This document shows, piece after piece, positions 7,346 through 64,000 of a stretch of DNA of 64,000 bases (within the stretch, counting starts at the first letter, position 1; each line of letters opens with the position of its first letter). The stretch comes from an uncultured delta proteobacterium (GTDB lineage Bacteria; Myxococcota_A; Polyangia; Polyangiales; Houyiibacteriaceae). The translations under genes were made by a program, and so were the position numbers. The stretch is from positions 371,814-435,813 of the forward strand of contig CAVOVB010000007.1 in NCBI GenBank assembly GCA_963699755.1, read 5' to 3'. The notes under the pieces were generated by a model. That model was not told the origin of the DNA, searched no databases, and was given only the letters and a program-made list of their open reading frames with translations.

Positions 7346-7380
7346 AAGTCGCGTTCTAGCCCATTGTGGGAAATTGCGCC

Positions 7381-42690: not shown

Positions 42691-42757
42691 GACTGCTCCG
42701 TACTCGCAAGAGCGGGACGTGCCAGCCGACCGACCCCGCACGTGCTACCTGCACCGG

Positions 42758-45398: not shown

Positions 45399-45514
45399 GG
45401 TGTGAAAGGACTCAGTGGCAGGGGGCAGAGCCAATTCCAAAGTCCTATCAAAGCTTATATACAGTGCGCGCGGCTTCGCATGACGTCTAGAAATGCGCGA
45501 ATCTGGTTTCGACG

Positions 45515-45545
45515 TCGGTTCTCAATTTGAGCCCGACGGCAACAG
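45515..45545 (+). repeat. Dispersed island repeat, copy C (degenerate)
   Basis: TCGGTTCTCAATTTGAGCCCGACGGCAACAG; 21/31 identical to copy A. Confidence 0.5.
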
Positions 45546-45573
45546 AGCTGATGCCCCTGGCATCTATCCAAGC

Positions 45574-47679
45574 TCAACCAGGTTGCGCTGGTTTTTTGCT
45601 GGGTGCTGCAGCCCGCGGTGTCGAAGGACGCTTTGCTTTCTCGCGTGCCTGCAGGGCCAACTGCCGCACCCTGGCGATGTCTTCATCGGAGAAAACGCCA
45701 TTCACACCCGAAATCGCAGCCAGCCGCATGCCGTGCTTCAACCCCAGTTTGTAGATTTCATGCACCTTTTCCCACTCGATGGTCCGGCCTAGGGTGAAAT
45801 TTTCGAACCGACCCTCGAGCGTGAGCACGATGGTCTCCGCAAGGCATGCATACACCACGTTGTGGTCTTCAAAACCGATTTGCTTCATGCGCACTTTGCC
45901 CGGCAAGTATACCTCGCCCGATTCGATGACCAACACATCAGGACGTTTGGCGACTTCTTCGGCGGGCAGGTCGAGTGGCCGCGCCACGTCGGTGATCACA
46001 CAGCCCGGCTTCACTTTCATGATATCGAGAATCTTCTTTCCAGCGCCGGAGGTTGCCGTGACGATCATATCCATGTCGCTGATGCTGCGGTCACTGTCTG
46101 CATAGGAAGCCAGTACCAGCTTTGCCTCGGGTGATTCTCTGAGTATCGACTTCTCGAGCACCAGGAGCTTTGCGGATTCCGGCGACACGAGGTGGACTTC
46201 CTCCGCTGTCCGGGCCAAGAGCCTGGCGCAGGCCGAGCCGATCGCACCGGTGGCGCCGACCACCATCGCCTTTCCCTTGATTTTCCTGCCCTTCTCGAGC
46301 TCGACCAAGCCCAGCCTGGCGGCGGCATCATGCGCTGCCCACAGGGCGCCCGAGGCGCTGTAGCTATTGCCGGTGGTGATAGGCAGCGGGGCGCGCTTGG
46401 CCACGGTGACCCCGGCGTCTCCGACCACTTTGGTGAAGGCCCCGAGACCCATGATCTGCGCGCCCATCTTCTTGGCCATGTCTGCGGCCGCCAAGAGTTG
46501 ACGATACGTGAACTCGGGACTGTGAGACATGATCTGTTTGGGCGTGCCCCCGACAGTAATCAGCCACCCTTGGGCCTCCACCCCTGAGGGAGACCGAATG
46601 CCCTCGACTTTCGAGTACACCATAGGCGGTGTGTGGGCGATCGCCTTTTCGACGACATCCATCACCGCCGGCGGCGACACTTTCGACAGAATCTCCAAAG
46701 GCTTCAGGTTCGTCAGGTATTTCTGCGAGAGCGGGTGGATCACAAACGCGAAGCGATTGATCTGTTTCTTGCCCTCGATTGGGTAGATGATTCTGGGTTT
46801 GAGATCCAGATCGGTGAATATCTCCAGGTAGTCGTCGTGCGAGATCTCCTTCGCAGGTTTGCCCAGCGCCGCCAGAATCATTGCCCCGACGATATTCAGG
46901 CCCACGGTCTGCTCAAATGGCTGGATGCTGCAGTCGATCACGACCCGAACCCCCCGTTCCTTCAGGACCTCCTGCCGGTCGGGGGAAATCGTCGAGGTCA
47001 GCACGACCTTCCCTTCCAGTTCCCCCGGACCATATCGCTCGAGCTGGTGGTAGGACGCGACAATGACATCCGCATCCCGTACCGCTTTCTTCAGAAGGAA
47101 TCTGTTGAACAGCTTCCCGGGCGCCAACGACGGTAGCAACCCGCCTTCGGGACCGAATCGCAGCACCGGGTGACTAGCCGCTGCATACCGTTCCAGGCCG
47201 CTCAATGAATGCAGGAGGCTCGGAGCGCCGAACTGGAGAACCGGATCGGCAAAGGACAAGTTCTGGGTGAACTCCGCCATGACGGACGCCAAGCGATAGT
47301 TGGTCGTGCCTGACAGGAACAACACCTTTGCATTGTTGAAGAAATTGCGTAGCTCGTGCTGGGCCGAGCGCAACGACCACTCCTGCACCATCTCCCGTAG
47401 CCGCGCGCCGGTGCTAACAAGGGTATCACCAGCCAGCTTTTCGAGCTTTGCGGTATCGCGTTGATGAAAATAATGGGTTCCCACGAAATAGTGATCGTGC
47501 ACCAAGCCGAGCCCGATGGCGTCGACCTTGTCCCGCCACTCGACGATGAGCTTCTCAGCTGCCTCAAAATCGTGATCGGTACCAATGCGCACGACATTGA
47601 AATCGTGGCCGAGGAATTGGGCTCTGAAGTTACAGTCGAGACTGTCGGGACCCAGGCTGATACTGGCGATGTGTTTCAT
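45574..47679 (-). CDS. Two-domain dehydrogenase; C-terminal half resembles acyl-ACP reductase
   Basis: 'RFAFVIHPL', 'GLGAFTKVVG', 'TTGNSYS', Rossmann 'VVGATGAIGS', 'DVARP', 'ACLAETIVLTLEG'. Confidence 0.8.
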   Translation of the reverse strand: MKHIASISLGPDSLDCNFRAQFLGHDFNVVRIGTDHDFEAAEKLIVEWRDKVDAIGLGLVHDHYFVGTHYFHQRDTAKLEKLAGDTLVSTGARLREMVQEWSLRSAQHELRNFFNNAKVLFLSGTTNYRLASVMAEFTQNLSFADPVLQFGAPSLLHSLSGLERYAAASHPVLRFGPEGGLLPSLAPGKLFNRFLLKKAVRDADVIVASYHQLERYGPGELEGKVVLTSTISPDRQEVLKERGVRVVIDCSIQPFEQTVGLNIVGAMILAALGKPAKEISHDDYLEIFTDLDLKPRIIYPIEGKKQINRFAFVIHPLSQKYLTNLKPLEILSKVSPPAVMDVVEKAIAHTPPMVYSKVEGIRSPSGVEAQGWLITVGGTPKQIMSHSPEFTYRQLLAAADMAKKMGAQIMGLGAFTKVVGDAGVTVAKRAPLPITTGNSYSASGALWAAHDAAARLGLVELEKGRKIKGKAMVVGATGAIGSACARLLARTAEEVHLVSPESAKLLVLEKSILRESPEAKLVLASYADSDRSISDMDMIVTATSGAGKKILDIMKVKPGCVITDVARPLDLPAEEVAKRPDVLVIESGEVYLPGKVRMKQIGFEDHNVVYACLAETIVLTLEGRFENFTLGRTIEWEKVHEIYKLGLKHGMRLAAISGVNGVFSDEDIARVRQLALQAREKAKRPSTPRAAAPSKKPAQPG

Positions 47680-48453
47680 AGGTGCTCTTCCCGCGCTGTG
47701 AAAACCAAGTGCCTAAGTTACAGGCTTCCCGTCGCCAGAACCAGCGACCATCTTGGTGAGCAGCCAGCACCCCAAAAAACAAAGATTCTGCCGACCTTGG
47801 CCGAAAGGGAGCGCGTGCTCGGTGATTGCCGTGGGTTGTCGTGAGCTGGGAGTCATCGGCGATTGGGGGCGAGGGCAGCCCGGCGACGTCTTCGACAAGC
47901 GAGACACCGCCTCGACCCGCGACGGATGGCCTCAGTGGATCTTCCAACGGCCGCGGTCGCCTCCGGACTCGGGGCGATGCTTTCGCATGACGAGATCGAA
48001 GCTCACGACGCCGAGATTGCAGACGCTGGTCACCCGCTCTTGGAACAGCCCGCTTGGGGAGTATTCATGGTGCGAGGCAACCACGAATCGATAGGCAAGA
48101 AGGATCGCGCTTCGAGGGCTGTCCTCGCCGGCCTCTCGTAGTGGAATGCGAACGCCGAGGTTGCCGCATGCACCGAGCGTTCTGTCAGGTAGCAGCACCT
48201 CGGTGTGACCGTCGTCGCTAAACACGATCTGCTTTTCGTTGATCGGATGACTGCAGTAGAATCCGCCCGCGAGGAACGGGGCGATGACGCTTGGCTGATC
48301 CTTGGGAATGCACAGATCAAACGTGAACGGAGGCGCGTCTCCCGATGTAGTGATCCTCCGGTCTCTCCGCCCACTGGAGCGTCGCCCGTCCCGCGAACAT
48401 GCAGGATGTCCACGGCGTGGTCGATCTGGGGATGCAGCGCAACCGCGTCGTCG

Positions 48454-48485
48454 AAAAACAAAGCCCGGGTCGAGCCCGGGCTTTG
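48454..48485 (-). terminator. Intrinsic terminator of the Hsp20 cluster
   Basis: Minus strand AAAGCCCGGG-CTCGA-CCCGGGCTTT followed by GTTTTT. Confidence 0.85.
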
Positions 48486-48528
48486 AAGGCACAGGAGTGC
48501 GGCCCGCCGCCAGTGCAACCGCTGGCAT

Positions 48529-48801
48529 TCAGGTCGCGGTGACCGGAACGCTCACGGGTGCGGGCCTTGCTTGCTTGGGGATTTGAATGGTCAGCACGCC
48601 GCCGCGCAGGGCCGCCCGCGCCTCGTTGGCGTCGAGGTAGTCAGGGAGCGAGAAGCAACGATACCAATCCTCACCGAGCCGCTCTCCCCACAGCGGTTTG
48701 TCGCTGGGCTCTTCGCCACGGGCACGTGCTGTCCAGTCACGCGATCGGCCGTACGGCGAATCGCGTTGCGCATGCGCTCGATGAAATTGTTTATCGTTCA
48801 C
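48529..48801 (-). pseudogene. Third Hsp20 copy, internally deleted or degenerate
   Basis: C-terminal alpha-crystallin motifs 'RCFSLPDYLD...GGVLTIQIPK...SVPV' but N-terminal strands missing. Confidence 0.6.
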
Positions 48802-48824
48802 CTCGTCATCGCGCTCCGTTCGAG

Positions 48825-49208
48825 CTAGGAGCCGCGGACTTCGATGCGCTTTGGCTTGGCGGCTTCCGACTTTGCCAAATGGACACGCAACACTCCTTGA
48901 GAGAGCTCGGCGCTCACGCCGTTCGGATCCACTGTGTTTGGCACTCGGAATACGCGCGAGAACGCAAGAGCGCGGGTTTCGGCTTGCCCTTCGGGTGCGG
49001 CCTGCGTTCCTTCGATGAGAAGCTCGGAACGATCGAGCCGCACTGAGAGCGCATGTTTCGGCACGCCCGGGAAATCCGCCACGACCAGGATCTCGTCCTG
49101 GCTCTCGTAGATGTCCACCGGCGGTGTGACGGTCACGACCTGGGCTTCCTCTGGCTGGTCGAGACTAGTCGCTTGACGTTGGGTCAGGGCAGTGGCTTGA
49201 GTAGTCAT
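48825..49208 (-). CDS. Hsp20/alpha-crystallin small heat-shock protein
   Basis: 'PPVDIYE', 'ADFPGV', 'GVLRVHLAKSEAAKPKRIEV'; GGAGG RBS. Confidence 0.92.
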   Translation of the reverse strand: MTTQATALTQRQATSLDQPEEAQVVTVTPPVDIYESQDEILVVADFPGVPKHALSVRLDRSELLIEGTQAAPEGQAETRALAFSRVFRVPNTVDPNGVSAELSQGVLRVHLAKSEAAKPKRIEVRGS

Positions 49209-49225
49209 CGTCTCACCTCCCTTGG

Positions 49226-49711
49226 TTACGAAACCTTCACTTGGATTTGCCGCGGCTGCTCCTCGGCCACCTTCGGCAAGGTCATTTCGAGAATCCCGTT
49301 TTTCAGGTTGGCCGTGGCCTTCTCGGCGTCGATGCGGCAGGGGAGTGTGAAGCTTCGCGCGAACGAGCGGTTGCCCCTCTCCTGTCGGTGCACGGAGTAG
49401 CCCTCCGGCACTTCGCTCATGCGTTGGCCACGGATCGTCAGCGAGCTCTGCTCCATGGAGATGTCGAGATCCTTCTCCGAAACCCCCGGCACCTCGGCGC
49501 GGAGCCGAAGCTCTGAGCCGGAGTCGTAGAGCGCGATGCGAGGCCATGCCGAGCCGGCGAACGTGCCGCCCTGCGCGCGTGCATCGCGGCCCCCGTCCCA
49601 GCCCCGCTCGAAGTCGAGGAAGAGACGATCCATCTGGTTTCGAAGGTCGTTCAGTGCCGACAGCTCGCGGTCGAGACCTCCGAAGCCCAGCTCATTCCAT
49701 CGTGTCAACAT
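49226..49711 (-). CDS. Hsp20/alpha-crystallin small heat-shock protein
   Basis: 'AEVPGV', 'FARSFTLP', 'NGILEMTLPK..PRQIQV'; AGGAGG RBS. Confidence 0.95.
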   Translation of the reverse strand: MLTRWNELGFGGLDRELSALNDLRNQMDRLFLDFERGWDGGRDARAQGGTFAGSAWPRIALYDSGSELRLRAEVPGVSEKDLDISMEQSSLTIRGQRMSEVPEGYSVHRQERGNRSFARSFTLPCRIDAEKATANLKNGILEMTLPKVAEEQPRQIQVKVS

Positions 49712-49753
49712 CGTGTAACCTCCTTTCGTGATGCCTCGTAAGAGGCGCTTCTC

Positions 49754-49773
49754 ATGGATGAGTAATCATCCAT
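49754..49773. promoter_or_regulatory. Palindromic operator candidate upstream of the Hsp20 cluster
   Basis: ATGGATGA-GTAA-TCATCCAT, next to a sigma32-like -35 CCCCCTTGA on the minus strand. Confidence 0.45.
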
Positions 49774-50042
49774 CGGAGCGGATCAAGGGGGTGTTGACAG
49801 CCTGCGAGGGATGTCTAGAAATTTCCGAAGATGGCGGTCTCCCGCCTGCTGTGGAAGGGAATGTCGGAGTACTTCGATCGCTTCGGCAGGAGGGCAGGTC
49901 TGAGCTTCCCGATGATGCGGGCTTTGGGGGGCAGGCCACGACACCGGCCCTTGAGGCGTCGGGGTGTGTGTACCTGACCACATGCCGGAGAGGAATGGGT
50001 CGGGGTGTTCGCGCGCAGCCGACCGTCATGGGTCCATAGAAA

Positions 50043-50059
50043 TTGGCACAATTGGCGCT
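50043..50059 (+). promoter_or_regulatory. Candidate sigma54 (-24/-12) promoter
   Basis: TTGGCACAATTGGCGCT with GG-N10-GC spacing, about 90 bp before the 50147 ORF. Confidence 0.45.
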
Positions 50060-50146
50060 GAAATATCGGAGATTTTGGTGAACGCCGTTCATCCACCTAT
50101 CCTGTTCGATGGCCGGGTATTCGCCCCGGGGAACAGGGAACCACTC

Positions 50147-51658
50147 GTGCTATTGAGAACACGTCTTGCGATACTCCTGCTATTCGCATCGGGCGCTGCG
50201 ACGGACCGCGGAGCAACCGTGGTCGAGGAGGGAGGGGCACGCGCTGCGACGATCGACTCGTCCCGGCAATTGCCCGATGAGATGGTCCGGTTTTCGACTT
50301 CAGTGATCAAGGCGCTAAACGACGGCGACGCGAAGCCGCCTGCGAGCAACAGCTATAGTCACCAGAGGTTCTTGGGCCGGAGAGAGCCACTCGGCGAGCC
50401 ACATATTCAACTGGAGTCGACCGACGCACACTCCATGCTCGCGTCGACCGACTGCTCCGGCTGGCTCAGCTTCGCGCTCAACACGGTCTCGCCTCTCCAT
50501 GAAGCCGTCCTGCAGTCGCAGCGGAAACGGCATGAGTACAACCGCGTCTATTCCGAGGACTTCGTGTTGCGGGAAAGTCGGAGACCATGGGCGCGAGCAT
50601 TCGTCGTCACCCATCATTTCCGGGGTGAGCAGGCGAACGCGACCGGCTTTGAGCCCGTTCCGAACTTCGAATACCTGCAGTCGGGCGATATCGGTGCCTA
50701 CGCGATGGGACGCTACGCCAAGCCATCCGATGAAAGCCGCCCCAAGCCCACCGATACTGGACACGTCTTCGTCGTGGTGGGTCCGCCAACCGTGGTCGAT
50801 CCGGCCACCAAGGGCTACGATGGCCGCGGAACGCTTCGCGAGGACGCGGCGAAAGTCATCGCCGTGCCAGTGATCGACTCGAGCGCAACCGTTCACTTTG
50901 ATCCGGACTCTAGGAAGAACGGGGAAGCGCGTTACTCCTTGCCGGAGTTTCGTCCTCATCCTCGTACAAGAGCTGGTGGGGTGGGCACCGGCACGATTTG
51001 GTTCGCCCTCAGCAAAGAGGGGCACGTCCTGCAGCGGCGTCTGGGCCCCAGACAGAAATATCGCCCAGTGCTCGCACGTGCTGCCCGCCTGCACGCGCGC
51101 ATTTCTCTCGACGAGGCGATTTCGGATGATGGAGGTGCTCTGCTGGTGCGCGTCTTCGAGAACTCTCGCTCTGAGTTCGACGGTGCCTCTTATGGGGATG
51201 CGCCAGTCCATCTCACCGGCAAGGGCGGTCTTCGTCTCGCCAGCGGACGGCTTGTCTTGAATGGTCACAACGATTTCTCTGGAGGCGTAACCGTTCAGTC
51301 CGCAGACTTGATCGTCGCGTCACCAACCGCGCTAGGCACTGGCGACGTCGCGGTCCATGGAGGGTCGGTGACGCTTCAACAGCCCGCGATAGGGGAGTCC
51401 GCAATGCTCAGTGTCGCCGAGAGTCTGCCCGATGGGGCGATTCGCCTCGATTTTGACGGAAGCAACGTCGTGCGAGCCCTCGAAATCGGAGAGACGACGC
51501 ACGACTGTGGGACCTGGGGCGGACCCGAGTCTGGAGCCACGTTCGTCCATCCGGTCTTCTCCGGTCCCGGTGTCCTAAAGCTTGCCACCCAATCGAACGA
51601 GACATGCGTACTGGCTCCCGCGCCTCCTGAACCGGGGACTGTTCCACAGGAGGAGTAG
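50147..51658 (+). CDS. Secreted protein: NlpC/P60-like N-terminus + autotransporter passenger-associated beta-strand repeat
   Basis: Signal peptide; 'DCSGWLSFAL', 'GDI', 'TGHVFVV'; 'GRLVLNGHNDFSGGVTVQSADL...ALGTGDV'; start estimated. Confidence 0.6.
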   Translation: MLLRTRLAILLLFASGAATDRGATVVEEGGARAATIDSSRQLPDEMVRFSTSVIKALNDGDAKPPASNSYSHQRFLGRREPLGEPHIQLESTDAHSMLASTDCSGWLSFALNTVSPLHEAVLQSQRKRHEYNRVYSEDFVLRESRRPWARAFVVTHHFRGEQANATGFEPVPNFEYLQSGDIGAYAMGRYAKPSDESRPKPTDTGHVFVVVGPPTVVDPATKGYDGRGTLREDAAKVIAVPVIDSSATVHFDPDSRKNGEARYSLPEFRPHPRTRAGGVGTGTIWFALSKEGHVLQRRLGPRQKYRPVLARAARLHARISLDEAISDDGGALLVRVFENSRSEFDGASYGDAPVHLTGKGGLRLASGRLVLNGHNDFSGGVTVQSADLIVASPTALGTGDVAVHGGSVTLQQPAIGESAMLSVAESLPDGAIRLDFDGSNVVRALEIGETTHDCGTWGGPESGATFVHPVFSGPGVLKLATQSNETCVLAPAPPEPGTVPQEE

Positions 51659-51788
51659 TCGGGACAGAGCCGGAAGCGTGACGAAATCGACAATACGCGC
51701 TCGAAGTTGCACGGTTGTTGGAATCAGGTGAGCCCCCTGTTCGGGTTGATCAGGAATTTCGCCCCTGTCGCCCGTTCTCCGTACACCG

Positions 51789-52172
51789 ATGGTGGGGAGG
51801 CTCGTGATGCCAGTTGATGGGGGCCAGGTTGGCTGGAAGTTCTGGCGGCGCTGGGCGTTGGCCAGCTCCGTAGCCTGGTTTGCGGGCTTGCTATTGGGCT
51901 TCGTAGCGGCCAGTGCTTCTGAGCCCGTTCTTGGGATCGATCCCCTTCAAGGAATACTTGCGTATTTCATCCTGGGAGTCTGTCCCGGCGCCGGTGTCGG
52001 CGTCGCGCAATGGCTGGTCCTGAGGAAACTATCGTTCCTTGATTTTCCGAGCCCAGTCGTCGGCGATGGACTTGGCAGCATCGCGACCGCCGAGCCCGAA
52101 CGCGAGCGCGGCCGCAACGGCAACGCTGCCCAGGGTGAAACCAAACGCCATGCTGACGATGTTGTCGGCTAG
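51789..52172 (+). pseudogene. 5' fragment of a membrane protein
   Basis: 'WKFWRRWALAS...VGVAQWLVLRK' then runs into the antisense of the opposite fragment. Confidence 0.5.
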
Positions 52173-52277
52173 GCCCACGGCCTTCAGGCCCATGGCCTTC
52201 AGGCCCATGGCGAGCACCAAGCCAAGGATCGCGATTCGGGCAATGTTGGCGAGCCCGGGGCTCCCGTGCTCCGTCAG
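52029..52277 (-). pseudogene. 3' fragment of a CmpX/MscS-associated TM-helix protein
   Basis: 'ANIARIAIL...GLADNIVSMAFGFTLGSVAVAAALAFGLGGRDAA'; cut off at the IS110 junction; internal 15-bp duplication. Confidence 0.65.
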
Positions 52278-52339
52278 CTGATATGTAGCGACCGGTCAAC
52301 AGAGATGATGGGGTTTCCTTTGTGTCCTTAGTGTCCTTT

Positions 52340-52530
52340 GTAGTTGGTTGAACGGCTCAAAGAAGCTGGCGAACAAAGCGACGGTTGATCAATCTGATAT
52401 TCGTGGATCGGCCCGAAGGCCGCCGACATGGTCATCATCCGTCGGGAGCTCGCTCAGACTAGTGGCGCGAGTTGGGCACGGCCGTGCCTATCGCATAAAT
52501 GTTTCGAGGCTTGTCCTTCCCGTGGGGATG
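52340..52530 (-). ncRNA. Putative bridge RNA/seekRNA in the IS110 right end (limits approximate)
   Basis: Segments matching the target junction (11/12) and donor junction (7/7), separated by hairpins. Confidence 0.7.
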
Positions 52531-53697
52531 CTTGCCAGCTTCTTTGAACCGTTCAACAGGCGGGCCCGGCGTGTTCATCTCGGCTTCGCGCTGCCGCCCC
52601 ACGGCCCACACAAACCCGGCGAGCTCTCGACTCATCGCGGTCACCGTGACCTGGTGAGACTTGGCTCGGATCCTCATTCGCCCGTGTTTTCGGTAGAGAC
52701 GCTTTTGCGCCTCCCACGCCATGTCGACAATGGCTTGACTCTGCCCTTGCTGGCGCCGCTTGAGGCTTGGACTGCGGCGAGGCCGAAGACGTCCACAGAA
52801 CGCCGACTCCCCCAAGACCCGGCGAAGATGCGCATTGCCCGTCTTGGTGATGCCACCCTGGTGCCGGCGGCCGCCACTGGAGTGTTCGCTCGGGACCAAA
52901 CCCAGGTAGCCCATGAACTTTTGGGCGCTGGGAAATCGCTCAAACGAACCGACCTCGCTCACCACGGTCACCGCGGTAAGCATCGCCACCCCGCGAAGGC
53001 TTTGCAGGGCCAGGACCAGCTCTTGCATCCGTGGAGGCGCCTGCTCGACCGCGCGGTCAATCGCTCTGTCGAGCCGCGCCACGCGCTCGGTCGCATGCTG
53101 CACTTCGTTTTTGTAGTCCACAAACGTCTCCTCTTGCGCCGCATGGTCGAACACCTGCGAATCGAGCCATCGCCAATGCGCTTGGCCCCAGGCGCTGCTC
53201 TGCGTATCTCGACGGCGGCCCAGGCGAAGCAAGAATTTGCTAAGCCGGTGCCGAGCACGGAGCTGGTCTTTCTTGGCCGCCTCTCGAGCACGAACCAAAT
53301 CGCGCAACGCCTGGTGCTCGGCATCCGGCACAAAGATCGGAGTCAGTTCGCCTGCCCGGTAAGCCTGCGCCAGCTTGAGCGCATCGCGCTTGTCGGTCTT
53401 GATGCGATCGCCTGCCCGCACCGGCACCAACGTGGGCGCAATCACCTCGCACGCGAGGCCCATCTTATGCAGCTGCCAGTACAGTGCATAGCCGGTCGGT
53501 CCCGCCTCGTAGCAAACGCGAAGCGACTTCGCCCTGCCGAGCTTCTTCATCGCCTTGCGAATCGCATCGGGTTGATTCGGAATCGTCCCTACCCCGCGAC
53601 CACGACCACGGCTGCTTCCTTCCGCCACCGCCACGGTGATCGTGTCCGCGTGCACATCCAGTCCCACGTACGTCCAGCTTGCTGTATGGTTCGACAT
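52459..53697 (-). CDS. IS110-family DEDD transposase/recombinase
   Basis: 'VGLDVH', 'CYEAGPTG', 'KTDKRDA', 'GLVPSEHSSG', 'ITKTGN'. Confidence 0.96.
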   Translation of the reverse strand: MSNHTASWTYVGLDVHADTITVAVAEGSSRGRGRGVGTIPNQPDAIRKAMKKLGRAKSLRVCYEAGPTGYALYWQLHKMGLACEVIAPTLVPVRAGDRIKTDKRDALKLAQAYRAGELTPIFVPDAEHQALRDLVRAREAAKKDQLRARHRLSKFLLRLGRRRDTQSSAWGQAHWRWLDSQVFDHAAQEETFVDYKNEVQHATERVARLDRAIDRAVEQAPPRMQELVLALQSLRGVAMLTAVTVVSEVGSFERFPSAQKFMGYLGLVPSEHSSGGRRHQGGITKTGNAHLRRVLGESAFCGRLRPRRSPSLKRRQQGQSQAIVDMAWEAQKRLYRKHGRMRIRAKSHQVTVTAMSRELAGFVWAVGRQREAEMNTPGPPVERFKEAGKHPHGKDKPRNIYAIGTAVPNSRH

Positions 53698-53794
53698 GAC
53701 CGACTCCCTTCGTATGTAGCTCTGCGCTACGGTCTTTTCCGATTCGCAGCGCAAACTACGGTCTGCGATCGGAGTCGGTCGCTACATCTTGACT

Positions 53795-53838
53795 AGTGCC
53801 GCGAAATTCGGCACTCATCTTGAGCCCGATGAGCTAAG
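53795..53838 (+). repeat. Dispersed island repeat, copy A (IS110 target)
   Basis: AGTGCCGCGAAATTCGGCACTCATCTTGAGCCCGATGAGCTAAG. Confidence 0.75.
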
Positions 53839-53908
53839 GGAGCGACTACCGCCACTTCATAGTCGCGGCTTGTTATGAAGGCGAGGTGTTCGTGGGAGAG
53901 CCGCGCCC

Positions 53909-54751
53909 CTAGTTCGCGGGGATCACGGGAATCTCGATGTCGGGGCCTACGGTTTCGAAGATGCAGATTTCGTCGCTCCAGACGCCGAGCGGCATGCCGT
54001 CGAGCGTGAGCTCAAACAGGAAATCACCCGACCAGTTGATGACGACAGGGTCGAAGGAGGTCGGGGAAAGCTCGAGGGTGACCTCCGTCAGCGAACCAAG
54101 CACGGTGGAGTATTCGAAGCGAGTGGGGTCGCTAAAAAACGCCGCACCAAGAGGGGCTCCGACGAAGCTCGGATCGAGCGTCGTCGTCGCTTCCGACACG
54201 TTGGCGTGTCCGATCGCCGTCGAGGCAGAAAACAACGCCGACTCTCCCGCGTCCTGGAGGACGATGAAGAGCGGATCTTCGAATCGGACGATGTAGGAAA
54301 GTGTGGCGCTACCCGACCCATCCGATACCACCTCCAGGGTCAACGAGGCCCCGAACGTAACCGGGCCAATCGAAGTGGGGAAGAAGGTGCAACCGTCGTC
54401 ACCGAAACCGTTCAACTTCGTCGCGGCCCAGGTCGTCGACCACGTTCCAGCGGCCAGCGTGGGCTTGGGCTCGCACACGCTGTCGATGCAGATGCCGGGC
54501 TCGCCATCGAGGTCACACTCGGTCCCGTTCTCGAGCACGGGCTGCTGGTCGAGTGAGCACGTGAGACCTGGCTCGATGTTCCACGCGTCGGCGGTGCAAG
54601 GATTGTCATCCCGCTCTGCGCACGTCGTACACGGAAACTCGAACCGGTTCCCCTCTTCGTCGAAGTCGTAGCAGGTCGGGCTCTCGCACTGCGAAAGCCC
54701 GCTCAGGAGAGCGAAGCCGATCAGCAACGAAAGAACTCCCGCGAAACGCAC
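53909..54751 (-). CDS. Hypothetical exported Cys-rich protein
   Basis: Signal peptide, 'DDNPCTAD', 'ENGTECDLDGEPGICIDSVC', acidic beta-rich C-terminus. Confidence 0.7.
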   Translation of the reverse strand: MRFAGVLSLLIGFALLSGLSQCESPTCYDFDEEGNRFEFPCTTCAERDDNPCTADAWNIEPGLTCSLDQQPVLENGTECDLDGEPGICIDSVCEPKPTLAAGTWSTTWAATKLNGFGDDGCTFFPTSIGPVTFGASLTLEVVSDGSGSATLSYIVRFEDPLFIVLQDAGESALFSASTAIGHANVSEATTTLDPSFVGAPLGAAFFSDPTRFEYSTVLGSLTEVTLELSPTSFDPVVINWSGDFLFELTLDGMPLGVWSDEICIFETVGPDIEIPVIPAN

Positions 54752-54804
54752 GGATTGGAGGTTAGCGTGCTCGCAAAGAAATGGGAAGACTCCACAGTTC
54801 GACG

Positions 54805-54904
54805 CACGCCTCCCAAACCGGTCGCCGCCCTCTGCCCGTCGAGCCCCCTACCCGACATTTCAAACTTGGAAAACCGCCCGACGCTTCTATCCGGGTTTGA
54901 CATC
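54805..54904 (+). repeat. Orphan duplicate of the IS1202-like right end
   Basis: 97/100 identical to 56849-56948. Confidence 0.9.
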
Positions 54905-54968
54905 TGTAAGGCCAATATAGAAATGTCGGGTCTGTGCCAGATTCAAATGTCGGGTTCAGACCCCACCC

Positions 54969-56285
54969 ATGGATACGGAGCTCGTTCTCATGAGCCGGCG
55001 CGAGATCGAGCGTGCCGAAGTGATGCGGCAAATCGCCGAGCGTCGCATGACGCAGCGACAAGCGGCATTGACCCTGCAGCTAAGCGTCCGGCAGATCGAG
55101 CGGCTCTACGCGTCCTACAAGCGCGACGGTGCCGCCGGTCTGGCTTCCAAGAAGCGCGGCAGCCCAGGAAACAATCGCTACGACGACGTGATTCGAGGGA
55201 CGGCGCTCGGGATGATCCGACGCCACTACTCGGATTTCGGACCCACGTTGGCGCACGAGAAGCTCACGGAGCTTCACGGTTTCCCGATGTCGGTCGAAAC
55301 GGTGCGCCAATGGATGATCGACGACGGTCTGTGGATGACCCGCGCCGAGCGAAAGAAACGTGTCCAGCAGCCGCGGCATCGACGGGATTGCTACGGCGAG
55401 CTCATTCAGATCGACGGTTGCGACCATCCCTGGTTTGAAGACCGTGGTCCTCGTGCCGTGCTGCTCGTCTACGTGGACGACGCCACCGGCATGCTCATGG
55501 AGCTGCACATGCGTGAATCGGAATCGGCGTTCAGCTACTTCGAGGCAACTCGAAATTATCTCGAGCGCCACGGAAAACCGGTGGCGTTGTACAGCGACAA
55601 AGCCGGCGTGTTCCGCGTCCATGCGAGGAGCCCCAAGGCCGGCGACGGCTTCACGCAGTTTGGCCGCGCCATGAGCGACCTCAATATCGACGTCATCTGC
55701 GCCAATACCCCAGCCGCCAAAGGCCGGGTCGAGCGGGCGCACCAAACGCTCCAAGACCGGCTCGTCAAAGAGCTTCGGCTCGCGGGCGTGTGCAGCATCG
55801 AGGAAGCCAATGCCTTTCTCCCGCAATTCATGGCGGATTACAATCGGCGCTTCGGCCGCATGCCGCGCGTGGATCATGACGCACATCGAGCCCTTCTGCC
55901 CCAGGACATCCTCGAGGACGTCTTCACCTGGCAGGAAACGCGGAAGGTGACGCGCAATCTCACGTTTCGTTTCAAGCGCACGATGTATCTTCTAGAGCCG
56001 TCGAAGGCGGCGAAACGCGCCGCCGGAAAACACGTGACCGTGCATGAGCTCGAGGATGGTGCGCTCTTCATTCGCTTCGAAGGCAAGGAGCTCTCGGCCT
56101 GTGCTTTCGACAAAGATCGGCGTGTCAGCCAGGGCGCCATCGTCGAGAACAAGTTGCTCGGCGCTGCGCTCGAGCATATCCGCAAGCAACAGCAACACGA
56201 GGAGCTCGAAGCGACTCGATTGGCGTCAGCCAAGACCAAACGGGACAAGAGACTCATCCGGAACAAGTTCGCCGCCTACCGGTAG
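54969..56285 (+). CDS. ISNCY/IS1202-family DDE transposase
   Basis: 'YSDFGPTLAHEKL', 'GELIQIDGCDHPWFE', 'VDDATG', 'YSDK', 'AKGRVERAHQTLQDRLVKEL'. Confidence 0.95.
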   Translation: MDTELVLMSRREIERAEVMRQIAERRMTQRQAALTLQLSVRQIERLYASYKRDGAAGLASKKRGSPGNNRYDDVIRGTALGMIRRHYSDFGPTLAHEKLTELHGFPMSVETVRQWMIDDGLWMTRAERKKRVQQPRHRRDCYGELIQIDGCDHPWFEDRGPRAVLLVYVDDATGMLMELHMRESESAFSYFEATRNYLERHGKPVALYSDKAGVFRVHARSPKAGDGFTQFGRAMSDLNIDVICANTPAAKGRVERAHQTLQDRLVKELRLAGVCSIEEANAFLPQFMADYNRRFGRMPRVDHDAHRALLPQDILEDVFTWQETRKVTRNLTFRFKRTMYLLEPSKAAKRAAGKHVTVHELEDGALFIRFEGKELSACAFDKDRRVSQGAIVENKLLGAALEHIRKQQQHEELEATRLASAKTKRDKRLIRNKFAAYR

Positions 56286-56304
56286 AGCGGGTGCACAAGC
56301 CGTC

Positions 56305-56646
56305 CTAGGAGGCTTCGTCATCGATGAGCGGAGCATCGACGAGGTCGTCCACGCGGCTGTGATACTCGACGTGCACCCACTCTTTGAACAGCGCTAGCGT
56401 TCGGTTCTTCGGCCAAAGGGCCTCGTCGGTGTACCAGCTTTCGAGCTCGCTTTCGAACAGCAGCTCGTGGTTCAGCGCGATCCATTCCTCGACATCCTCG
56501 GGGTACGTGATGGGGTGGATCAAGTACACGGTCTGCTCATCCTGGCCTACCTGGATATCGGGGGAGTCGTCGTGCGGGTCCGCTTCGTTGATCCACCGCA
56601 CGAAGGGATCCTTGTAGCGCAGGATGATCGCGGTTCGATTGACCAT
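56305..56646 (-). CDS. Small acidic hypothetical passenger protein
   Basis: 'MVNRTAIILRYKDPFVRWIN...ELESWYTDEALWPKNRT..FKEW'; GGAGG RBS; lies inside the IS ends. Confidence 0.75.
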   Translation of the reverse strand: MVNRTAIILRYKDPFVRWINEADPHDDSPDIQVGQDEQTVYLIHPITYPEDVEEWIALNHELLFESELESWYTDEALWPKNRTLALFKEWVHVEYHSRVDDLVDAPLIDDEAS

Positions 56647-56946
56647 TGTGGGCCTCCTCGAGCCCTTGCGCGACGCTCTGCGGGCTCACCCCGTCCAGGG
56701 CAAGCCAAGCTCACGTTTGGCTTCGATCTCCGGCCGAAACGACGCGCGAGCGCCCCGAATCCCCGATGGCCGACGCCCTGCTCGGCCCTGCCGCACCGCC
56801 CTGCCCACAGCAAGGGCAAACACCAGTTCACCGGCCACCCCACCGGCCCACGCCTCCCAAACCGGTCGCCGCCCTCTGCCCGTCGAGCCCCCTTCCCGAC
56901 ATTTCAAACTGGGAGAACCGCCCGACGCTTCTATCCGGGTTTGACA

Positions 56947-56977
56947 TCGGCGCGCATCTTGAGCCCGATGGGCCAAG
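56947..56977 (+). repeat. Dispersed island repeat, copy B (abuts IS1202-like right end)
   Basis: TCGGCGCGCATCTTGAGCCCGATGGGCCAAG; 27/31 identical to copy A. Confidence 0.8.
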
Positions 56978-57012
56978 AGAGGGGTCGACACAACCCTGGG
57001 CAGCCAGCAAAG

Positions 57013-57804
57013 CTACCAGTCTTCCATCGGCATGCATTCAGACATCCAGCTCCACTCCACGTCGGTCATGAACCAGGTGTAGGCTTCGAGGTCGCTCACG
57101 CCCCATTCCTTGAAGCCGCGGACCCGCTCGAACAGGGCGGTGGCATGGTCACCACTGGGCTCATCGAGCAAGTCGTTGAAACACAGCATCAGGTCGCTGG
57201 GCTTTTCGGGCACCGATTCGAGGGCCCTGGGCAACCACTTGTGGTACGGGAAGAGCCTTCGATTGTGCGCCAGCAACAACCGGCCCGTGAATAGTGCGAG
57301 CTGACTGACCGCTCGCGTCAGCGTGTAGCGATTGTCGTGGCGTTCAGCCTCGTGGATGAGCCAATGCTGAATGAACGCCATGCTGTAGAAGGCCTTGATG
57401 CGCTCATCGTGCCCGGCCTCGGGATAGACAGGAATGCGTTGCAGAAGGGCATCCAGGCCGGAGACGTGCGAGTAGGCGAAGAAGGCACCCTCGAAGGCTG
57501 CGCGGGAAGGTTCATTTCCCTTTTCTGCTACGTCGTCGAGGTACGCGAGGTTGATGATTTTGCCGTCGACGTACCCGCCATCGTAGTCACAGAGGTCCTT
57601 GCGATTGATAAACAGATCGCGCTCGGCCAGGCGCCGCTCGAACACGTCGTCGGTCGCAATGATGAGGAAGTCTACATCCGAATCCTCGCGGGCGTAGCCT
57701 TTCGCGACAGAGCCCCCGATGATCAGCCCACGGAAACACGGATCGTCGCGGTAGGCGTCGGCCAGGCGGTCGATGGCTCGCCGGTGGTGGTCCCGCATCC
57801 TCAT
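57013..57804 (-). CDS. Pol-beta-superfamily nucleotidyltransferase with C-terminal helical domain
   Basis: 'IGGSVAKGYAREDSDVD', later 'YVD', 'PYHKW'. Confidence 0.85.
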   Translation of the reverse strand: MRMRDHHRRAIDRLADAYRDDPCFRGLIIGGSVAKGYAREDSDVDFLIIATDDVFERRLAERDLFINRKDLCDYDGGYVDGKIINLAYLDDVAEKGNEPSRAAFEGAFFAYSHVSGLDALLQRIPVYPEAGHDERIKAFYSMAFIQHWLIHEAERHDNRYTLTRAVSQLALFTGRLLLAHNRRLFPYHKWLPRALESVPEKPSDLMLCFNDLLDEPSGDHATALFERVRGFKEWGVSDLEAYTWFMTDVEWSWMSECMPMEDW

Positions 57805-57940
57805 GCCGGCAGTGTATCATGACGCGGCCCGCATCGCGTTTGCGCGGCCACGGCAGGTGAAAACTGTTCGACGAAGACAAAGTCATCTCGACTTCCCCTG
57901 CTTCCGAAGGGAGCCGTCTGAGGTTGCGCCCGAAAGAGGT

Positions 57941-58411
57941 TCAAGCGATTGAGGACAGCGCCTCGTCTAGCCTTCCGCCCACGCCGCGCATCACCCGCCC
58001 AAACACGCGAGCGTCTTGCGCGCTGAGGCCTTCCATCATGATCTTGACGACTTCGGCCTGCTCGCGGACCCCTTTCTTGAGGACGGCTCGCCCTTTGCGC
58101 GTGAGGTAGACACGGTATCCGCGCGCGTCGTCCGGGTCGCTTTCCCGCCTGATGAGCCCGAGCGCTTCGAGACGTTGCAACAGGGCCGTCACGTTGCTTT
58201 TCGCCACCAGGAGCCGGTCGGCGAGGCGCATTTGAGAGAGGCCTTCGTCGCGAGCGATGGCCAGCAGGACCTCGTAGCGCGCGATGCTGAGGTCGAGGAG
58301 CGCCAGTCGCGCGGTCAAAAGCCGCTGGCACTTCATGTAGGTTTTCACCACCTCCAGCCAAGAGGCGTACTCGGGGATGTCGTCCAGCTCGGAAATCCGC
58401 TTTTTCACCAC
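57941..58411 (-). CDS. MarR family transcriptional regulator
   Basis: 'LSQMRLADRL..AKSNVTALLQRLEALGLIRR..DPDDAR..RVYLT.KG'. Confidence 0.93.
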   Translation of the reverse strand: MVKKRISELDDIPEYASWLEVVKTYMKCQRLLTARLALLDLSIARYEVLLAIARDEGLSQMRLADRLLVAKSNVTALLQRLEALGLIRRESDPDDARGYRVYLTRKGRAVLKKGVREQAEVVKIMMEGLSAQDARVFGRVMRGVGGRLDEALSSIA

Positions 58412-58421
58412 ATCCCTAATT

Positions 58422-58439
58422 TAGTTCACTTGTGAACTA
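58422..58439. promoter_or_regulatory. Probable MarR operator
   Basis: TAGTTCAC-TT-GTGAACTA perfect IR about 10 bp upstream of the MarR start. Confidence 0.7.
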
Positions 58440-58535
58440 TTTGCAATGGGCTATCGAAGCAACGATCGCGCTGCCAAGCTGATCGCGGCACTGCCGGAAT
58501 GGCAATCGCGCGCCGTTTTGAACGCGCGCCCCGGA

Positions 58536-58778
<243 letters not shown>

Positions 58779-58796
58779 GAAAAGGGGGTTGTGCCC

Positions 58797-59042
58797 ATGG
58801 ACGACGTCCGTCGGGCTGCCGCCGCGCTACTTCATCGGGTAGCGGACGGCGGCGAAATCCCAATGTTGGTGCTGCGCGAGTTTGCGAACCTCGTGCTGCA
58901 CTCGGAGCTGGTTGCGGGTGCCCGCGCAGTGCTCGACGGGCCACCCGAGTTTGCCGTGAGGCGTGCGCTGGAGCTTGCGAGCGTTGTTCTGGCCGTCGGG
59001 GTGGGTGCGGAACGCGAACACACAAAGGGAGGGACGAAGTGA
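58797..59042 (+). CDS. Small hypothetical protein coupled to mobC
   Basis: 81 aa; GTGA stop/start overlap with next gene. Confidence 0.5.
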   Translation: MDDVRRAAAALLHRVADGGEIPMLVLREFANLVLHSELVAGARAVLDGPPEFAVRRALELASVVLAVGVGAEREHTKGGTK

Positions 59043-59386
59043 AAGGCGGCGGAGCACGGAAGCCGAAGTCACGAATCGTCTCGTTCCGTGTCGATGAGGA
59101 AGATTTCAGTCGGCTCGATACCCTCGCCCAGCAAACCAGCCACTCGCGTGCAGAGGTGCTCCGTCGATGTCTCGTGGGTGCTCGCCTGAAAAGCACCATC
59201 GATGCACAGGCGCTCACCGAGGTTGCACGGGTGCACGCCGACCTCAACCGCATCGGCGGCCTCCTCAAGCTCGCCATCCGAGAGGGCGTTTCTGATCGAT
59301 CGAGCCACAACAGGCTGAACCTCGAGCTCCTCGACTCCATCATCCAAGTCCGTCGAGCGGTGGAGCGGCTAGCGGGCCGTCGGTGA
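59039..59386 (+). CDS. Relaxosome accessory protein (MobC/TraJ-like, ribbon-helix-helix)
   Basis: 'IVSFRVDEEDFSRL...SRAEVLR', 'VHADLNRIGGLLKL'; overlaps relaxase start. Confidence 0.8.
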   Translation: MKGGGARKPKSRIVSFRVDEEDFSRLDTLAQQTSHSRAEVLRRCLVGARLKSTIDAQALTEVARVHADLNRIGGLLKLAIREGVSDRSSHNRLNLELLDSIIQVRRAVERLAGRR

Positions 59387-60630
59387 TTGTCCGGCACCAA
59401 CGTGCATCGGCAAGCAACAAAGGCTTTCGTCAGCTCGCGCGCTACATTCGAGGTCGAAGCGACAAGCCGCGAGCGACCTGGTTCCTGGCTGCCAATCTTC
59501 CTGGCGTGACCGGGACCCGTGACCTCGAGCTGGCGTGCCGACTCGTCGAGGCTGTGAACGCGCAGAACACCCGCGCGGGCAGCAACCGTACCTACCACCT
59601 CGTCGTCTCGCTTCACCCGGAGGACCGAAGCCTCGACGGGAACGAGCTCAGGCGTGTTGTGGAAAACCTTGTGGAGACGTTGGGGTTTGCCGGTCACCAG
59701 TACATCGCCGCCCGTCACAACGACAAAGACCACGAACACGTGCACGTGGCCATCCACAAGATTCATCCGGAGACCTTTCGCATTCACTCGCCAGCCTGGG
59801 ATCACCAGAAGCTCTTCACCGCGGGCCGTGCGCTCGAACGAGAGCTCGGACTCACGCCGCTTCAGTCCAAGGTGCGCGATCGTGAGAAAGTCCCGCAGAG
59901 AGCAGCGGACCACGAAGCTCAGCACGGGATCGACAGCTTTGCTCGCTGGGCCCGGAACGAGCTAGGTCCCGCACTTCGAGCCGGGCAGCTGCGGAGCTGG
60001 GACGATGTTCACGACGTGTGCGCCAGTCTTGGTGTCGTGCTTCGCCCGCATGGCAACGGCCTCGTCTTCGAGGACGTCGAGCAAGGCATGCGAGTGAAGG
60101 CCTCTTTTGTAGATCGCCAGCTCAGCAAGCCCCGCCTCTGCAAACGGTTCGGAGACTTCCAGCCAACGCCAGGGCATCAGCTGGAAGCCGCAAGAACCGC
60201 GACCCTGCGATACTCCCCCGCCCCGGCCATCGCGCCGCAGGGCTTGTGGAAGGAATACGAGCAGTCTCTCGACCAGGCCCGAAGGCAGCGCCGACACGCC
60301 TGGAGCAGCTACCGAGACACCGCCTCTCGCGAGCGTCGGCGGCTCAAAGAGAAGTATCGAAACCAGCGAGGTCTCCTCGCCGCCCTACCCGTGTCGGGCC
60401 GCGACCGAAAACGGCTTTCACAACAACTGGCGCTCCGCCGAGCCATCGAATCCCGGGCCCTCAAGCGGAAGCTCGCAGTCCAACGGAAGGCGATTCAGAA
60501 GACTCCGCACCCTGGCACATGGCGTCATTTCGTCGCCAGTCGCGCCGCGCAGCGCGACGCCCGTGCGATTCGAATTCTACAGCGACCAGAGCGGGAGCTA
60601 GGCCGTTCCAACGAAGAAAGAGAGTTGTGA
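59383..60630 (+). CDS. MOB-P type (TraI-like) relaxase
   Basis: 'LARYI', 'TYHLVVSL', 3H motif 'HNDKDHEHVHVAIHKIHP', 'GNGLVF', 'VKAS'. Confidence 0.9.
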   Translation: MIVRHQRASASNKGFRQLARYIRGRSDKPRATWFLAANLPGVTGTRDLELACRLVEAVNAQNTRAGSNRTYHLVVSLHPEDRSLDGNELRRVVENLVETLGFAGHQYIAARHNDKDHEHVHVAIHKIHPETFRIHSPAWDHQKLFTAGRALERELGLTPLQSKVRDREKVPQRAADHEAQHGIDSFARWARNELGPALRAGQLRSWDDVHDVCASLGVVLRPHGNGLVFEDVEQGMRVKASFVDRQLSKPRLCKRFGDFQPTPGHQLEAARTATLRYSPAPAIAPQGLWKEYEQSLDQARRQRRHAWSSYRDTASRERRRLKEKYRNQRGLLAALPVSGRDRKRLSQQLALRRAIESRALKRKLAVQRKAIQKTPHPGTWRHFVASRAAQRDARAIRILQRPERELGRSNEEREL

Positions 60631-60709
60631 GATGCGAGGAGACGGAGTGGAGACGCAGATTGGCGAGCCAACTGCGGTCTAGAGTGCGCCGCAAATCGAC
60701 ACAACATTG

Positions 60710-60753
60710 AGTACCGCGCAATTCGGCGCTTAGAATTGTCCCCAGGGGCTAAG
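60710..60753 (+). repeat. Dispersed island repeat, copy D
   Basis: AGTACCGCGCAATTCGGCGCTTAGAATTGTCCCCAGGGGCTAAG; 31/44 ungapped identity to copy A. Confidence 0.65.
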
Positions 60754-60914
60754 AGGCCCGCGACTGCTCACGTTTCCGGACTGCAGTTGAAACGACCCCA
60801 CCCAGGTGGCGTTCGGCCGTCATCCGTCGGCGGCTGCGACTGCCGAGCTCGTTGGGAAAAGGCGGCAAGAGTCGTGCTCGACGCCAGCCCGGGTGAGGTC
60901 GTGTACGGCACGCT

Positions 60915-62768: not shown

Positions 62769-62826
62769 TGCAGATTGCTCCGTGGCGCTAGCTTAGTGGG
62801 TAAGACTAAAGGGCCCAGGCGCTTCG

Positions 62827-63978: not shown

Positions 63979-64000
63979 CTCGGCGCGAAACGTATCTCAA

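Follow-up and report, generated by a model that had tools for sequence, protein, structure and literature searches.

A short unit repeated in mobilizable islands of a Myxococcota genus is the oriIS end of an ISCR/IS91-family element and contains a dif-like core

The element IS91, after which a family of insertion sequences (IS) is named, starts transposition at one end, oriIS, forms circles, and often fails to stop at its other end, terIS (PMC13181058), and circles from IS91 elements have been described in Sphingobium (PMC5737581). For ISCR elements (ISCR, insertion sequence common region), no transposition had been shown as of 2018, and their pick-up of genes rests on models (PMC6218425); a "sandwich" route of capture between two oriIS copies has been attributed to Yuan et al. 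2024 (10.1101/2025.01.22.634252). A different kind of mobility gathers around dif-like sites with their XerC and XerD arms, and when elements of one IS1202 subgroup insert at such sites, a distance of 5 bp separates their left end from the XerC arm (Siguier et al., bioRxiv 10.1101/2022.12.17.520857; likewise Harmer et al., PMC10132070). Here we analyze a 64,000-nucleotide stretch of an uncultured member of the Myxococcota (the window; contig CAVOVB010000007.1, positions 371,814 to 435,813, assembly GCA_963699755.1) in which a short repeat lies between the gene blocks of an accessory region. The repeat is the inner part of a unit of about 104 bp. This unit contains a dif-like core and forms the oriIS end of a rolling-circle (HUH) element in the ISCR/IS91 family that belongs to this Myxococcota genus.

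The initial annotation of the window had drawn attention to four copies of the repeat (A to D) and had read them as a candidate tyrosine-recombinase site that defines gene modules. A recount reproduced their positions, their common orientation, their pairwise identities (A/B, 27/31; A/C, 21/31; A/D, 31/44), and the dyad CTCATC-N8-GATGAG in copy A. When a profile was built and the genome scanned, as had been proposed, a 35-bp repeat profile recovered 38 matches of at least 18 bits (genome size, 5.35 Mb), and the reversed genome gave none; 13 sites were added by a second profile, made from the conserved sequence left of the repeat, and with two weak repeat matches and copy C the genome total comes to 54. 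Nearly all of these (52/54) are centered between gene calls, and 94% have a neighbor within 15 kb (1,000 random draws: mean, 25%; maximum, 52%), in keeping with the expected clustering in variable islands. A scan of 254 proteins (gene calls of at least 100 to 105 aa in the site regions) found accessory genes, transposases, mobC-relaxase pairs, and integrases in these clusters. A pattern search matched 20 of 24 genomes of the same genus; the same pattern had no match in 16 genomes of other families, nor did the unit pattern match any viral contig.

The consensus of 186 full sites is about 104 bp long and is composed, from the outer end, of an ISCR-type terminus, some 40 bp, an XerD-like arm, a 7- to 8-bp spacer, an XerC-like arm, a 34-bp segment (R, the repeat noticed initially), and an inner boundary. 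The ori terminus is present at 184 of 361 distinct sites, and 27 of the 361 are joined to a transposase end. Conservation ends sharply at both ends of the unit, and homologs of the flanks show that both ends cut through foreign DNA, often within genes. In the flank past the inner end, there is a bias to G followed by C or T; past the ori end, no target motif was found, the commonest tetranucleotide accounting for 11 of 184 ori ends. In a sister subfamily (R2, the main type being R1), R is replaced by an unrelated 15-mer, the core is kept, and the unit ends at the same point before CCGGCAAACAA; since the end point is the same and the inner segment different, the repeat is not the essential part of the unit. 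R holds imperfect palindromes, no shared DNA fold was found (among 114 units, no base pair was common to more than 30%), and Rfam gave no match in the 44- to 64-kb part of the window. As a separate observation, short tandem duplications that end exactly at the inner boundary (e.g., a 22-nt repeat) occur at several loci (L281; L416, in G044:C82; L081; L256; L243), as if the inner end had been rejoined to GC within its own unit.

Some units lie about 120 bp past the end of a transposase gene of the IS91 family (PF04986 and PF14319, both over cut-off). There are 23 C-terminal matches that are followed by at least 200 nt; 14 have a unit at 153 to 154 nt, 2 have the sister unit, and 7, all partial, have neither; among the 14 loci where the match spans at least a third of the protein and at least 200 nt follow, 12 have the unit, with R1 at exactly 153 nt in 10 of the 12. 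The transposase, 468 to 492 aa long, is about 41% identical to those of ISCR1 and ISCR2. Its translation includes HFH, which we take to be the HUH motif, and RYLLR, presumably the single-tyrosine motif; as in ISCR/IS91 elements, it is a HUH transposase with a Zn-binding N-terminal domain. The outer end of the unit has the consensus AGGGCGTTT...CTAT..C (95 copies), and a profile of these 95 termini recovered the ISCR2 end at 19.1 bits (shuffle maximum, 10.7) and other ISCR ends at 19.3 (shuffle maximum, 7.6) and 12.5. The terminus is in register with the published 22-mer at the end of the ISCR1 oriIS (PMC13023784), whose oriIS region measures 232 bp (PMC6218425). The target tetranucleotide beside oriIS that is typical of the canonical elements IS91, IS801, and IS1294 was not seen at the 184 ori ends, and part of an alignment of 17 transposase-upstream regions gave no clear common end (terIS), an integrase usually lying upstream. 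With ISCR1 and ISCR2/ISVsa3, of the IS91 family with its one-ended transposition, the element has in common, besides the transposase, an oriIS terminus in register about 220 to 235 bp past the stop codon, variable, target-unspecific DNA past oriIS, and the apparent capture of neighboring DNA. It differs from them in having a dif-like core within its oriIS end (no such core rises above shuffles in the four ISCR ends used as references), in a second, precise inner boundary that makes the ~104-bp unit, in up to about 50 solo copies per genome, and in the lack of a class 1 integron. The initial annotation had named identity to a transposon end as an outcome that would speak against its reading, and a transposable-element end is what the repeat proved to be.

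The host genome has a single canonical dif-like site, ATTTCGCAGAA CCTATA TTATGTAAACT, at C3:687011, and 32 of 41 genomes from its order have such a dif, one per genome in all but three. GC skew did not place it in a terminus, the assembly consisting of 11 contigs. The genome encodes XerD (over the family cut-off; C3:404339-405214) and a second Xer protein just under the cut-off, an XerC candidate (C5:26049-26948). The core of the unit, on the strand opposite to the repeat, has an 11 + 7/8 + 11 layout and occupies the 29 to 30 bp left of the repeat; averaged over 195 sites, its arms match those of the host dif at 8.4 to 8.6 of 11 positions on the XerC side and 6.9 to 7.9 of 11 on the XerD side, and the core of the sister subfamily matches at 18 to 19 of 22 with a 6-bp spacer. 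The unit therefore has a dif-like (Xer-like) site that lies beside, and not in, the dyad of the repeat. This placement departs from the initial annotation, which had read the dyad of copy A as an 11-6-11 Xer core and likened an arm of copy B to an XerC arm: the left ends of IS1202 elements face the arm left of the dyad, the sister subfamily lacks the dyad sequence and keeps the core, and the supposed XerC arm in copy B is not an Xer-like site, the core of the unit being located directly left of the repeat on the opposite strand.

Two kinds of IS mark the core, as the initial annotation had suspected from the two elements beside copies A and B. Five IS1202 left ends are present in the genome, of which three lie 5 bp from the XerC-like arm of a unit, one lies 5 bp from the true dif, and one belongs to a tandem copy in the window; this geometry settles that the XerC arm is on the left side of the dyad. 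The genome has four right ends of IS1111-like elements, and each of them falls at the CT within a dif-like spacer. IS1202-type elements also lie 5 bp from dif in three relatives, and the left end at the host dif is at C3:687005 of this genome (G000; L236). As far as the accounts of Siguier et al. and Harmer et al. describe it, the ISAba32 subgroup of IS1202 behaves alike, with TGT ends, a left end that faces the XerC arm across 5 bp, a 5-bp duplication, a passenger gene, tandem insertions, and insertion at the chromosomal dif as well; those accounts place it mainly in Proteobacteria, whereas the host here belongs to the Myxococcota. Four of the five left ends have the spacing of this subgroup, 5 to 6 bp from an XerC arm, and a 5-bp duplication is seen at C11, with TCGGC on both sides; the window element, itself a tandem insertion with 2 bp, is provisionally placed in the same subgroup. 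Strand exchange at the core would most likely be carried out by the host XerCD; binding and recombination by Xer proteins are predicted from the IS1202 geometry together with a break in linkage at the spacer, to which we now turn.

The two halves of the unit are inherited independently across the spacer. In nine pairs of sites with upstream DNA at least 95% alike and different downstream DNA, the spacer differs in 1/9 and the center of R in 8/9 (background, 0.96 and 0.98), and in three pairs with like downstream cargo, the spacer differs in 3/3. At 17 transposase-attached ends, identity over the transposase-proximal 166 bp tracks R (rho = 0.37) and the XerC arm (0.47) and not the ori half (0.03), and in 115 units the mutual information is 0.09 to 0.16 among the ori-side blocks and 0.02 to 0.07 across the core (null, 0.039). 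These patterns point to an exchange at or just right of the spacer, and the linkage data would fit more than one enzyme. A crossover in the variable center of R was dropped after these linkage analyses, though 2/3 of the pairs with shared cargo fit it.

Solo units are mostly arranged head to tail between unrelated cargo, inside tRNA-integrated islands, and neighboring sites within 10 kb have the same orientation in 53 of 66 cases. We illustrate this with locus L253, where four units are 100% identical over 103 to 105 bp with unrelated cargo between them, the last being attached to the transposase end; one of the cargo stretches duplicates 532 bp from the relaxase end of the same island, and the relaxase-linked site has the XerC arm and R of the array units with a spacer and XerD arm of its own. 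The order of the island (L253 and L426) is mobC-relaxase, site, repeated cargo and unit, transposase, integrase, and tRNA, with a similar order in L428, L427, L424, and L267. Among 11 transposase-attached ends with an upstream neighbor, five have an array unit of identical C arm and R, compared with 82 of 33,954 cross-source pairs; one of the five is of the little-varying sister type. The breaks in synteny anticipated by the initial annotation were seen: of 57 pairs alike upstream, 4 are also alike downstream, with many of the pairs sharing a relaxase or IS flank and so not being independent. Homologs of one 9.7-kb cargo stretch have a unit at 0/29 loci elsewhere, and those of another stretch have one at 6/28, all six at relaxase genes. 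Among the individual cargoes, rhodopsin and beta-carotene dioxygenase genes lie between two units, with a photolyase gene nearby (L014, 1254-3102; G000 C1:1939254-1941102). A Thr-Tyr-Gly-Thr and Trp tRNA cluster occurs on two contigs (G000 C1:1660610-1662514 and C7:339345-341392).

Beyond the genus, a related transposase was found in 71 of 401 genomes of the phylum. Of 24 loci in other genera, 19 have enough downstream DNA, and three of these have a dif-like site matching at 16 to 18 of 22 positions (shuffle maximum, 14); several more have an XerC-like arm 25 to 35 bp inside a CCTAT terminus. Genome G233, of another family, has 28 pattern matches, of which one looks like the host dif and the rest belong to a unit of about 50 bp (17 regions fetched); this unit matches that host's own dif, and its XerC arm runs into the CCTATACGC terminus. 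Duplicate ends 2 to 2.6 kb away were found in G408 (63 bp) and G188 (92 bp), so that three genomes from two other Myxococcota families have duplicated ends with dif-like cores. At the G408 locus (L433, G408:C468), the 63-bp duplicated end with its dif-like core is at 4769-4831 and 7360-7420, and the second copy is followed, 6 bp from its XerC arm, by an IS1202-type left end starting with TGT. In these other-family loci, the orientation of the core relative to the transposase is reversed. The distance from the core to the inner boundary is fixed and short in three unit types (34 nt in R1, 15 nt in R2, and about 14 nt in G233).

The model that we favor combines rolling-circle capture with Xer-type exchange at an ISCR end that has a dif-like core. 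It builds on the ISCR identity of the unit, the core, its targeting by IS1202 and IS1111, the precise junctions with foreign DNA at both ends, the in-cis copies identical to the transposase end, and the independent inheritance of the halves. The transposase would start at the ori terminus and often stop at the inner boundary, so that the short unit becomes joined to new DNA whose flank is biased to G[C/T]. Read-through from the new unit copy, with loose termination, would then produce a circle of unit and cargo, and this circle could be taken up through strand exchange on the XerC side of the core, either by a unit already in place or by the dif-like site that follows the relaxase gene of the island. 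Each capture would add one unit, giving head-to-tail arrays in tRNA-integrated mobilizable islands. We assign this model as a whole a probability of roughly 0.6. A wider version, which is tentative and falls somewhat short of even odds, would see in it a capture platform of the Myxococcota at large, in which an ISCR-type HUH transposase copies its short end unit and snips out arbitrary DNA and the host XerCD stacks the circles into arrays in mobilizable tRNA islands, like an integron, with a core that coevolves with the dif of each host.

Several results weigh against the favored model. A single R1 core matches dif at 14/22, which equals the shuffle maximum (14), and the unit spacers are 7 to 8 bp long with C-proximal bases (CTAG) unlike those of dif. 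Six of the 11 transposase-attached ends have no neighbor with an identical C arm and R. No empty site was found for 118 solo units, homologs having reached both junctions for 11, so the primary insertion step is unseen, and no cargo-free platform of relaxase, site, and transposase was found. Excised circles, which the initial annotation had suggested looking for, were sought in contigs of four public runs, and none gave a joint that could be read as a circle junction; the few joints that go back have short sides and fit other family members. The center of R also differs in two of the three pairs with shared cargo, which a single crossover in the spacer does not explain; the pairs are not independent, so the correlations overstate certainty; and the exchange could be homologous recombination in a conserved block of about 25 bp. 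On the side of the transposase, the scores are below the cut-offs of NF052416 and NF033538, which leaves it in no named clade, the score of the ISCR1 end with the terminus profile is no more than 4.5, against a shuffle maximum of 10.0, and two of six reference ISCR loci have no terminus. Simple insertion of a mini-element was also considered and was not supported, two tests having given no empty site; two genus-wide DNA searches for empty sites returned cargo homologs without units and no joined flanks.

The main alternative is capture by rolling circle only. XerC/D would bind the core and not recombine it, so that the core would serve as a roadblock or terminator that sets the inner boundary, or as a decoy; the circles would re-enter through RecA-type recombination along the 104 bp of the unit, a route that has been proposed for ISCR1 with the 3' conserved segment. 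The fixed short distance from core to inner boundary in three unit types, the occurrence of the core in either orientation relative to the transposase according to family, and the identical in-cis units, which are substrates for homologous recombination, all fit this explanation. We nevertheless regard it as unlikely, as relaxase-linked sites share only the C arm and R with their neighbors and have their own D arm and spacer, linkage breaks at the spacer, and the block common to exchanged sites right of the spacer is short for RecA. A pdif-like Xer cassette system proper, of which the ISCR element merely carries or targets one site, is closest to the initial reading of a pdif- or integron-like module site; the involvement of an Xer-like site has stood, and the IS1202 targeting, the synteny breaks, and the relaxase-linked sites without an ori terminus agree with it, as do the chromosomal islands of dif modules described in Acinetobacter (PMC12907356). 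The pdif/xrs modules of Acinetobacter likewise have many dif-like sites of variable spacers between island gene blocks, targeted by ISAba32-group IS1202 5 bp from the XerC arm (for Xer-site modules as a comparison, see PMC13393415). The sites here are, in contrast, mostly direct repeats with 7- to 8-bp spacers, lie inside a transposon end, and are not fixed to cargo genes; 53/66 neighbors are direct, whereas pdif cassettes have inversely repeated flanking sites, and cargo homologs elsewhere are without the site at all 29 loci. The ISCR terminus at 184/361 distinct sites is not needed by Xer cassettes, and both unit ends are precise junctions that cut foreign genes. We thus consider a pdif-like system quite improbable.

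Less probable still is recombination of the core by the island's own tyrosine integrase, encoded divergently beside the ISCR transposase, on the pattern of GIsul2, whose integrase moves CR2-sul2 units via att sites (PMC9376610). A gene or fragment for such an integrase lies just upstream of the transposase in seven of eight mapped transposase-bearing islands (none in L019), and that precedent also combines an ISCR element with an integrase-mobilized genomic island; there, island integrase and att sites move the unit, and the available text of the report mentions no dif-like site or duplicated oriIS unit. The target of the integrases is already accounted for by their position at tRNA genes and by a tRNA-derived att remnant in the window, and the core tracks the host dif in two families. 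An intergenic repeat of the repetitive extragenic palindromic (REP) kind or an integron attC site is hardly credible. The intergenic position of 52/54 sites and the palindromes in R are in its favor; the strong clustering, the lack of a preferred gene orientation, a shared fold, or an Rfam match, and above all the identity to the transposase-linked end contradict it. The initial remark that each copy lies downstream of a minus-strand gene holds in the window but not over the 54 sites (neighbor-gene orientations, 16/13/13/12), and the evenly scattered, gene-oriented copies expected of a plain REP were not seen. Integron attC sites were rejected on the same lines: as had been remarked for GTTRRRY, the unit consensus lacks the GTTRRRY/RYYYAAC cores, there is no orientation bias, cargo homologs are without sites, and no hairpin is shared. 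A Tn3-type res site or inverted repeat, considered from the TAAG end, was rejected as well, the consensus lacking terminal GGGG and the transposase link pointing elsewhere.

The cer/psi sites and the attP sites of integrative mobile elements exploiting Xer (IMEX) also combine an Xer core whose spacer is longer or whose XerD arm is degenerate with conserved XerC-side sequence, and one site type is located directly downstream of a mob region. In contrast, the sequence that flanks the core here is a transposon end, wholly different between the two subfamilies, and no accessory protein was identified. A literature search made largely without subscription papers (e.g., Yuan et al. 2024 and Toleman et al. 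2006) found no paper that connects dif-like sites with the ends of IS91/ISCR elements. Much of the carriage of resistance genes is due to ISCR elements, and their footprints here are abundant and precise, with a 104-bp (or 50- to 85-bp) unit, exact junctions, and arrays identical to a resident element; the unit is thus a compact substrate for tests of capture. A rolling-circle transposon end with a dif mimic that fits the dif of its host, as in at least two families here, would join two mobility systems that have been treated separately, and would explain why dif-hunting IS1202 elements gather in the islands that bear the unit.

The copies in the window (Table 1) are all partial, none of A, B, C, or D being a complete unit. 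They appear to be relics: halves left by IS insertions (A, B, and C) and one relaxase-linked hybrid (D). Copy A comprises the XerC arm and R, and copy B is R alone behind an IS1202 right end; B begins with the 5-bp TCGGC, and an intact pair with TCGGC on both sides is found at C11:76273/77596. The window IS1202 element stands in tandem behind an orphan right end with 2 bp (TC) between them, in contrast to the usual 5-bp duplication of the ISAba32 subgroup. Copy C scores 4.9 bits on the R profile and was recovered with a model of 12 junctions of an IS1202 right end with R, and so is a decayed version of B. Copy D is a complete core with R, 92 bp behind the relaxase gene, of the relaxase-linked type without an ori terminus. 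The initial interpretation is, overall, partly supported, and some of its local details need amendment. The IS110 element does adjoin copy A, but it is really inside the unit, at the CT of the spacer; the truncated gene placed at the edge of A exists as a C-terminal piece of mscS, but at the far end of this element, where it abuts the left end in place of the usual ori/XerD half. The left flank of the element is unlike those of the other two left ends found.

Table 1. Features of the window that bear on the unit, with their supporting matches
Feature	Position	Strand	Evidence
Copy C: decayed IS1202-type right end (45501-45514) and decayed R (45515-45548)	45501..45548	+	nhmmer E 1.5e-6
Cargo gene, 701 aa	45574..47679	-	weak aminotransferase/reductase matches
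Truncated mscS, C-terminal fragment	52029..52279	-	NF033912, positions 324-365 only
IS110-family element (IS1111-like, subterminal inverted repeats) at spacer CT	52280..53794	-	NF033542 over cut-off
IS1111-like transposase gene	52459-53697		within the 52280..53794 element
Copy A: spacer remainder and XerC-like arm ATTTCGCGGCA	53795..53807	-	9/11 to host dif arm
Copy A: R segment (with the dyad)	53808..53841	+	46.7 bits; ends at the precise inner boundary of the unit
Cargo gene without family match	53909..54727	-	
Orphan right end of an earlier IS1202-type copy	54800..54902	+	95% to 56844-56946
IS1202-family element, TGT...ACA ends	54905..56946	+	NF033594 over cut-off
IS1202 element genes: transposase; passenger open reading frame (ORF)	54969-56285; 56305-56646		
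Copy B: R segment, cut off from the XerC arm by the IS1202 insertion	56947..56980	+	49.6 bits
34-nt copy of the 5' part of tRNA-Leu(TAG)	58630..58663	+	identical to the tRNA gene start on C1
mobC (59039-59386) and MOBP relaxase (59383-60630)	59039..60630	+	PF21983, PF03432, NF041893 over cut-off
Copy D: core ATTGCGCGGTA CTCAATG TTGTGTCGATT	60694..60722	-	XerC arm 8/11, XerD arm 7/11, 7-bp spacer
Copy D: R segment	60723..60755	+	37.8 bits
Cargo after D: MscS gene (60915-62768) and 364-aa gene	60915..63921	-	also on contig C1 and in two relatives

At the left side of the region, homology to relatives at the 701-aa cargo gene begins 10 to 25 bp past copy C, and at the right side, relatives have the relaxase and site D in common and diverge directly after the site. 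The initial suggestion that C and D bracket the accessory region is not borne out at D, where the island has no clear close: position 64000 is the end of the contig, and a 5.5-kb block spanning D (relaxase, D, MscS gene, and 364-aa gene; 58507-64000) recurs at G000 C1:1583460-1588953 with 99.8% identity and is 100% identical in G023. This duplicated block may be a recent copy or a matter of assembly, as contamination of the bin is 9% and the window stops where the contig does. The tRNA-Leu(TAG) copy upstream of mobC is probably an att remnant of the island, and a 198-aa ORF called over it (58446-59042) is likely spurious. A 39-bp direct repeat (77%) occurs right after D (60754-60792) and at the 3' end of the 364-aa gene (62851-62889). 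The cargo between C and A includes two tandem Hsp20 genes (48825-49711), and a multiheme cytochrome c gene (42479-44140) lies to the left of the island edge.

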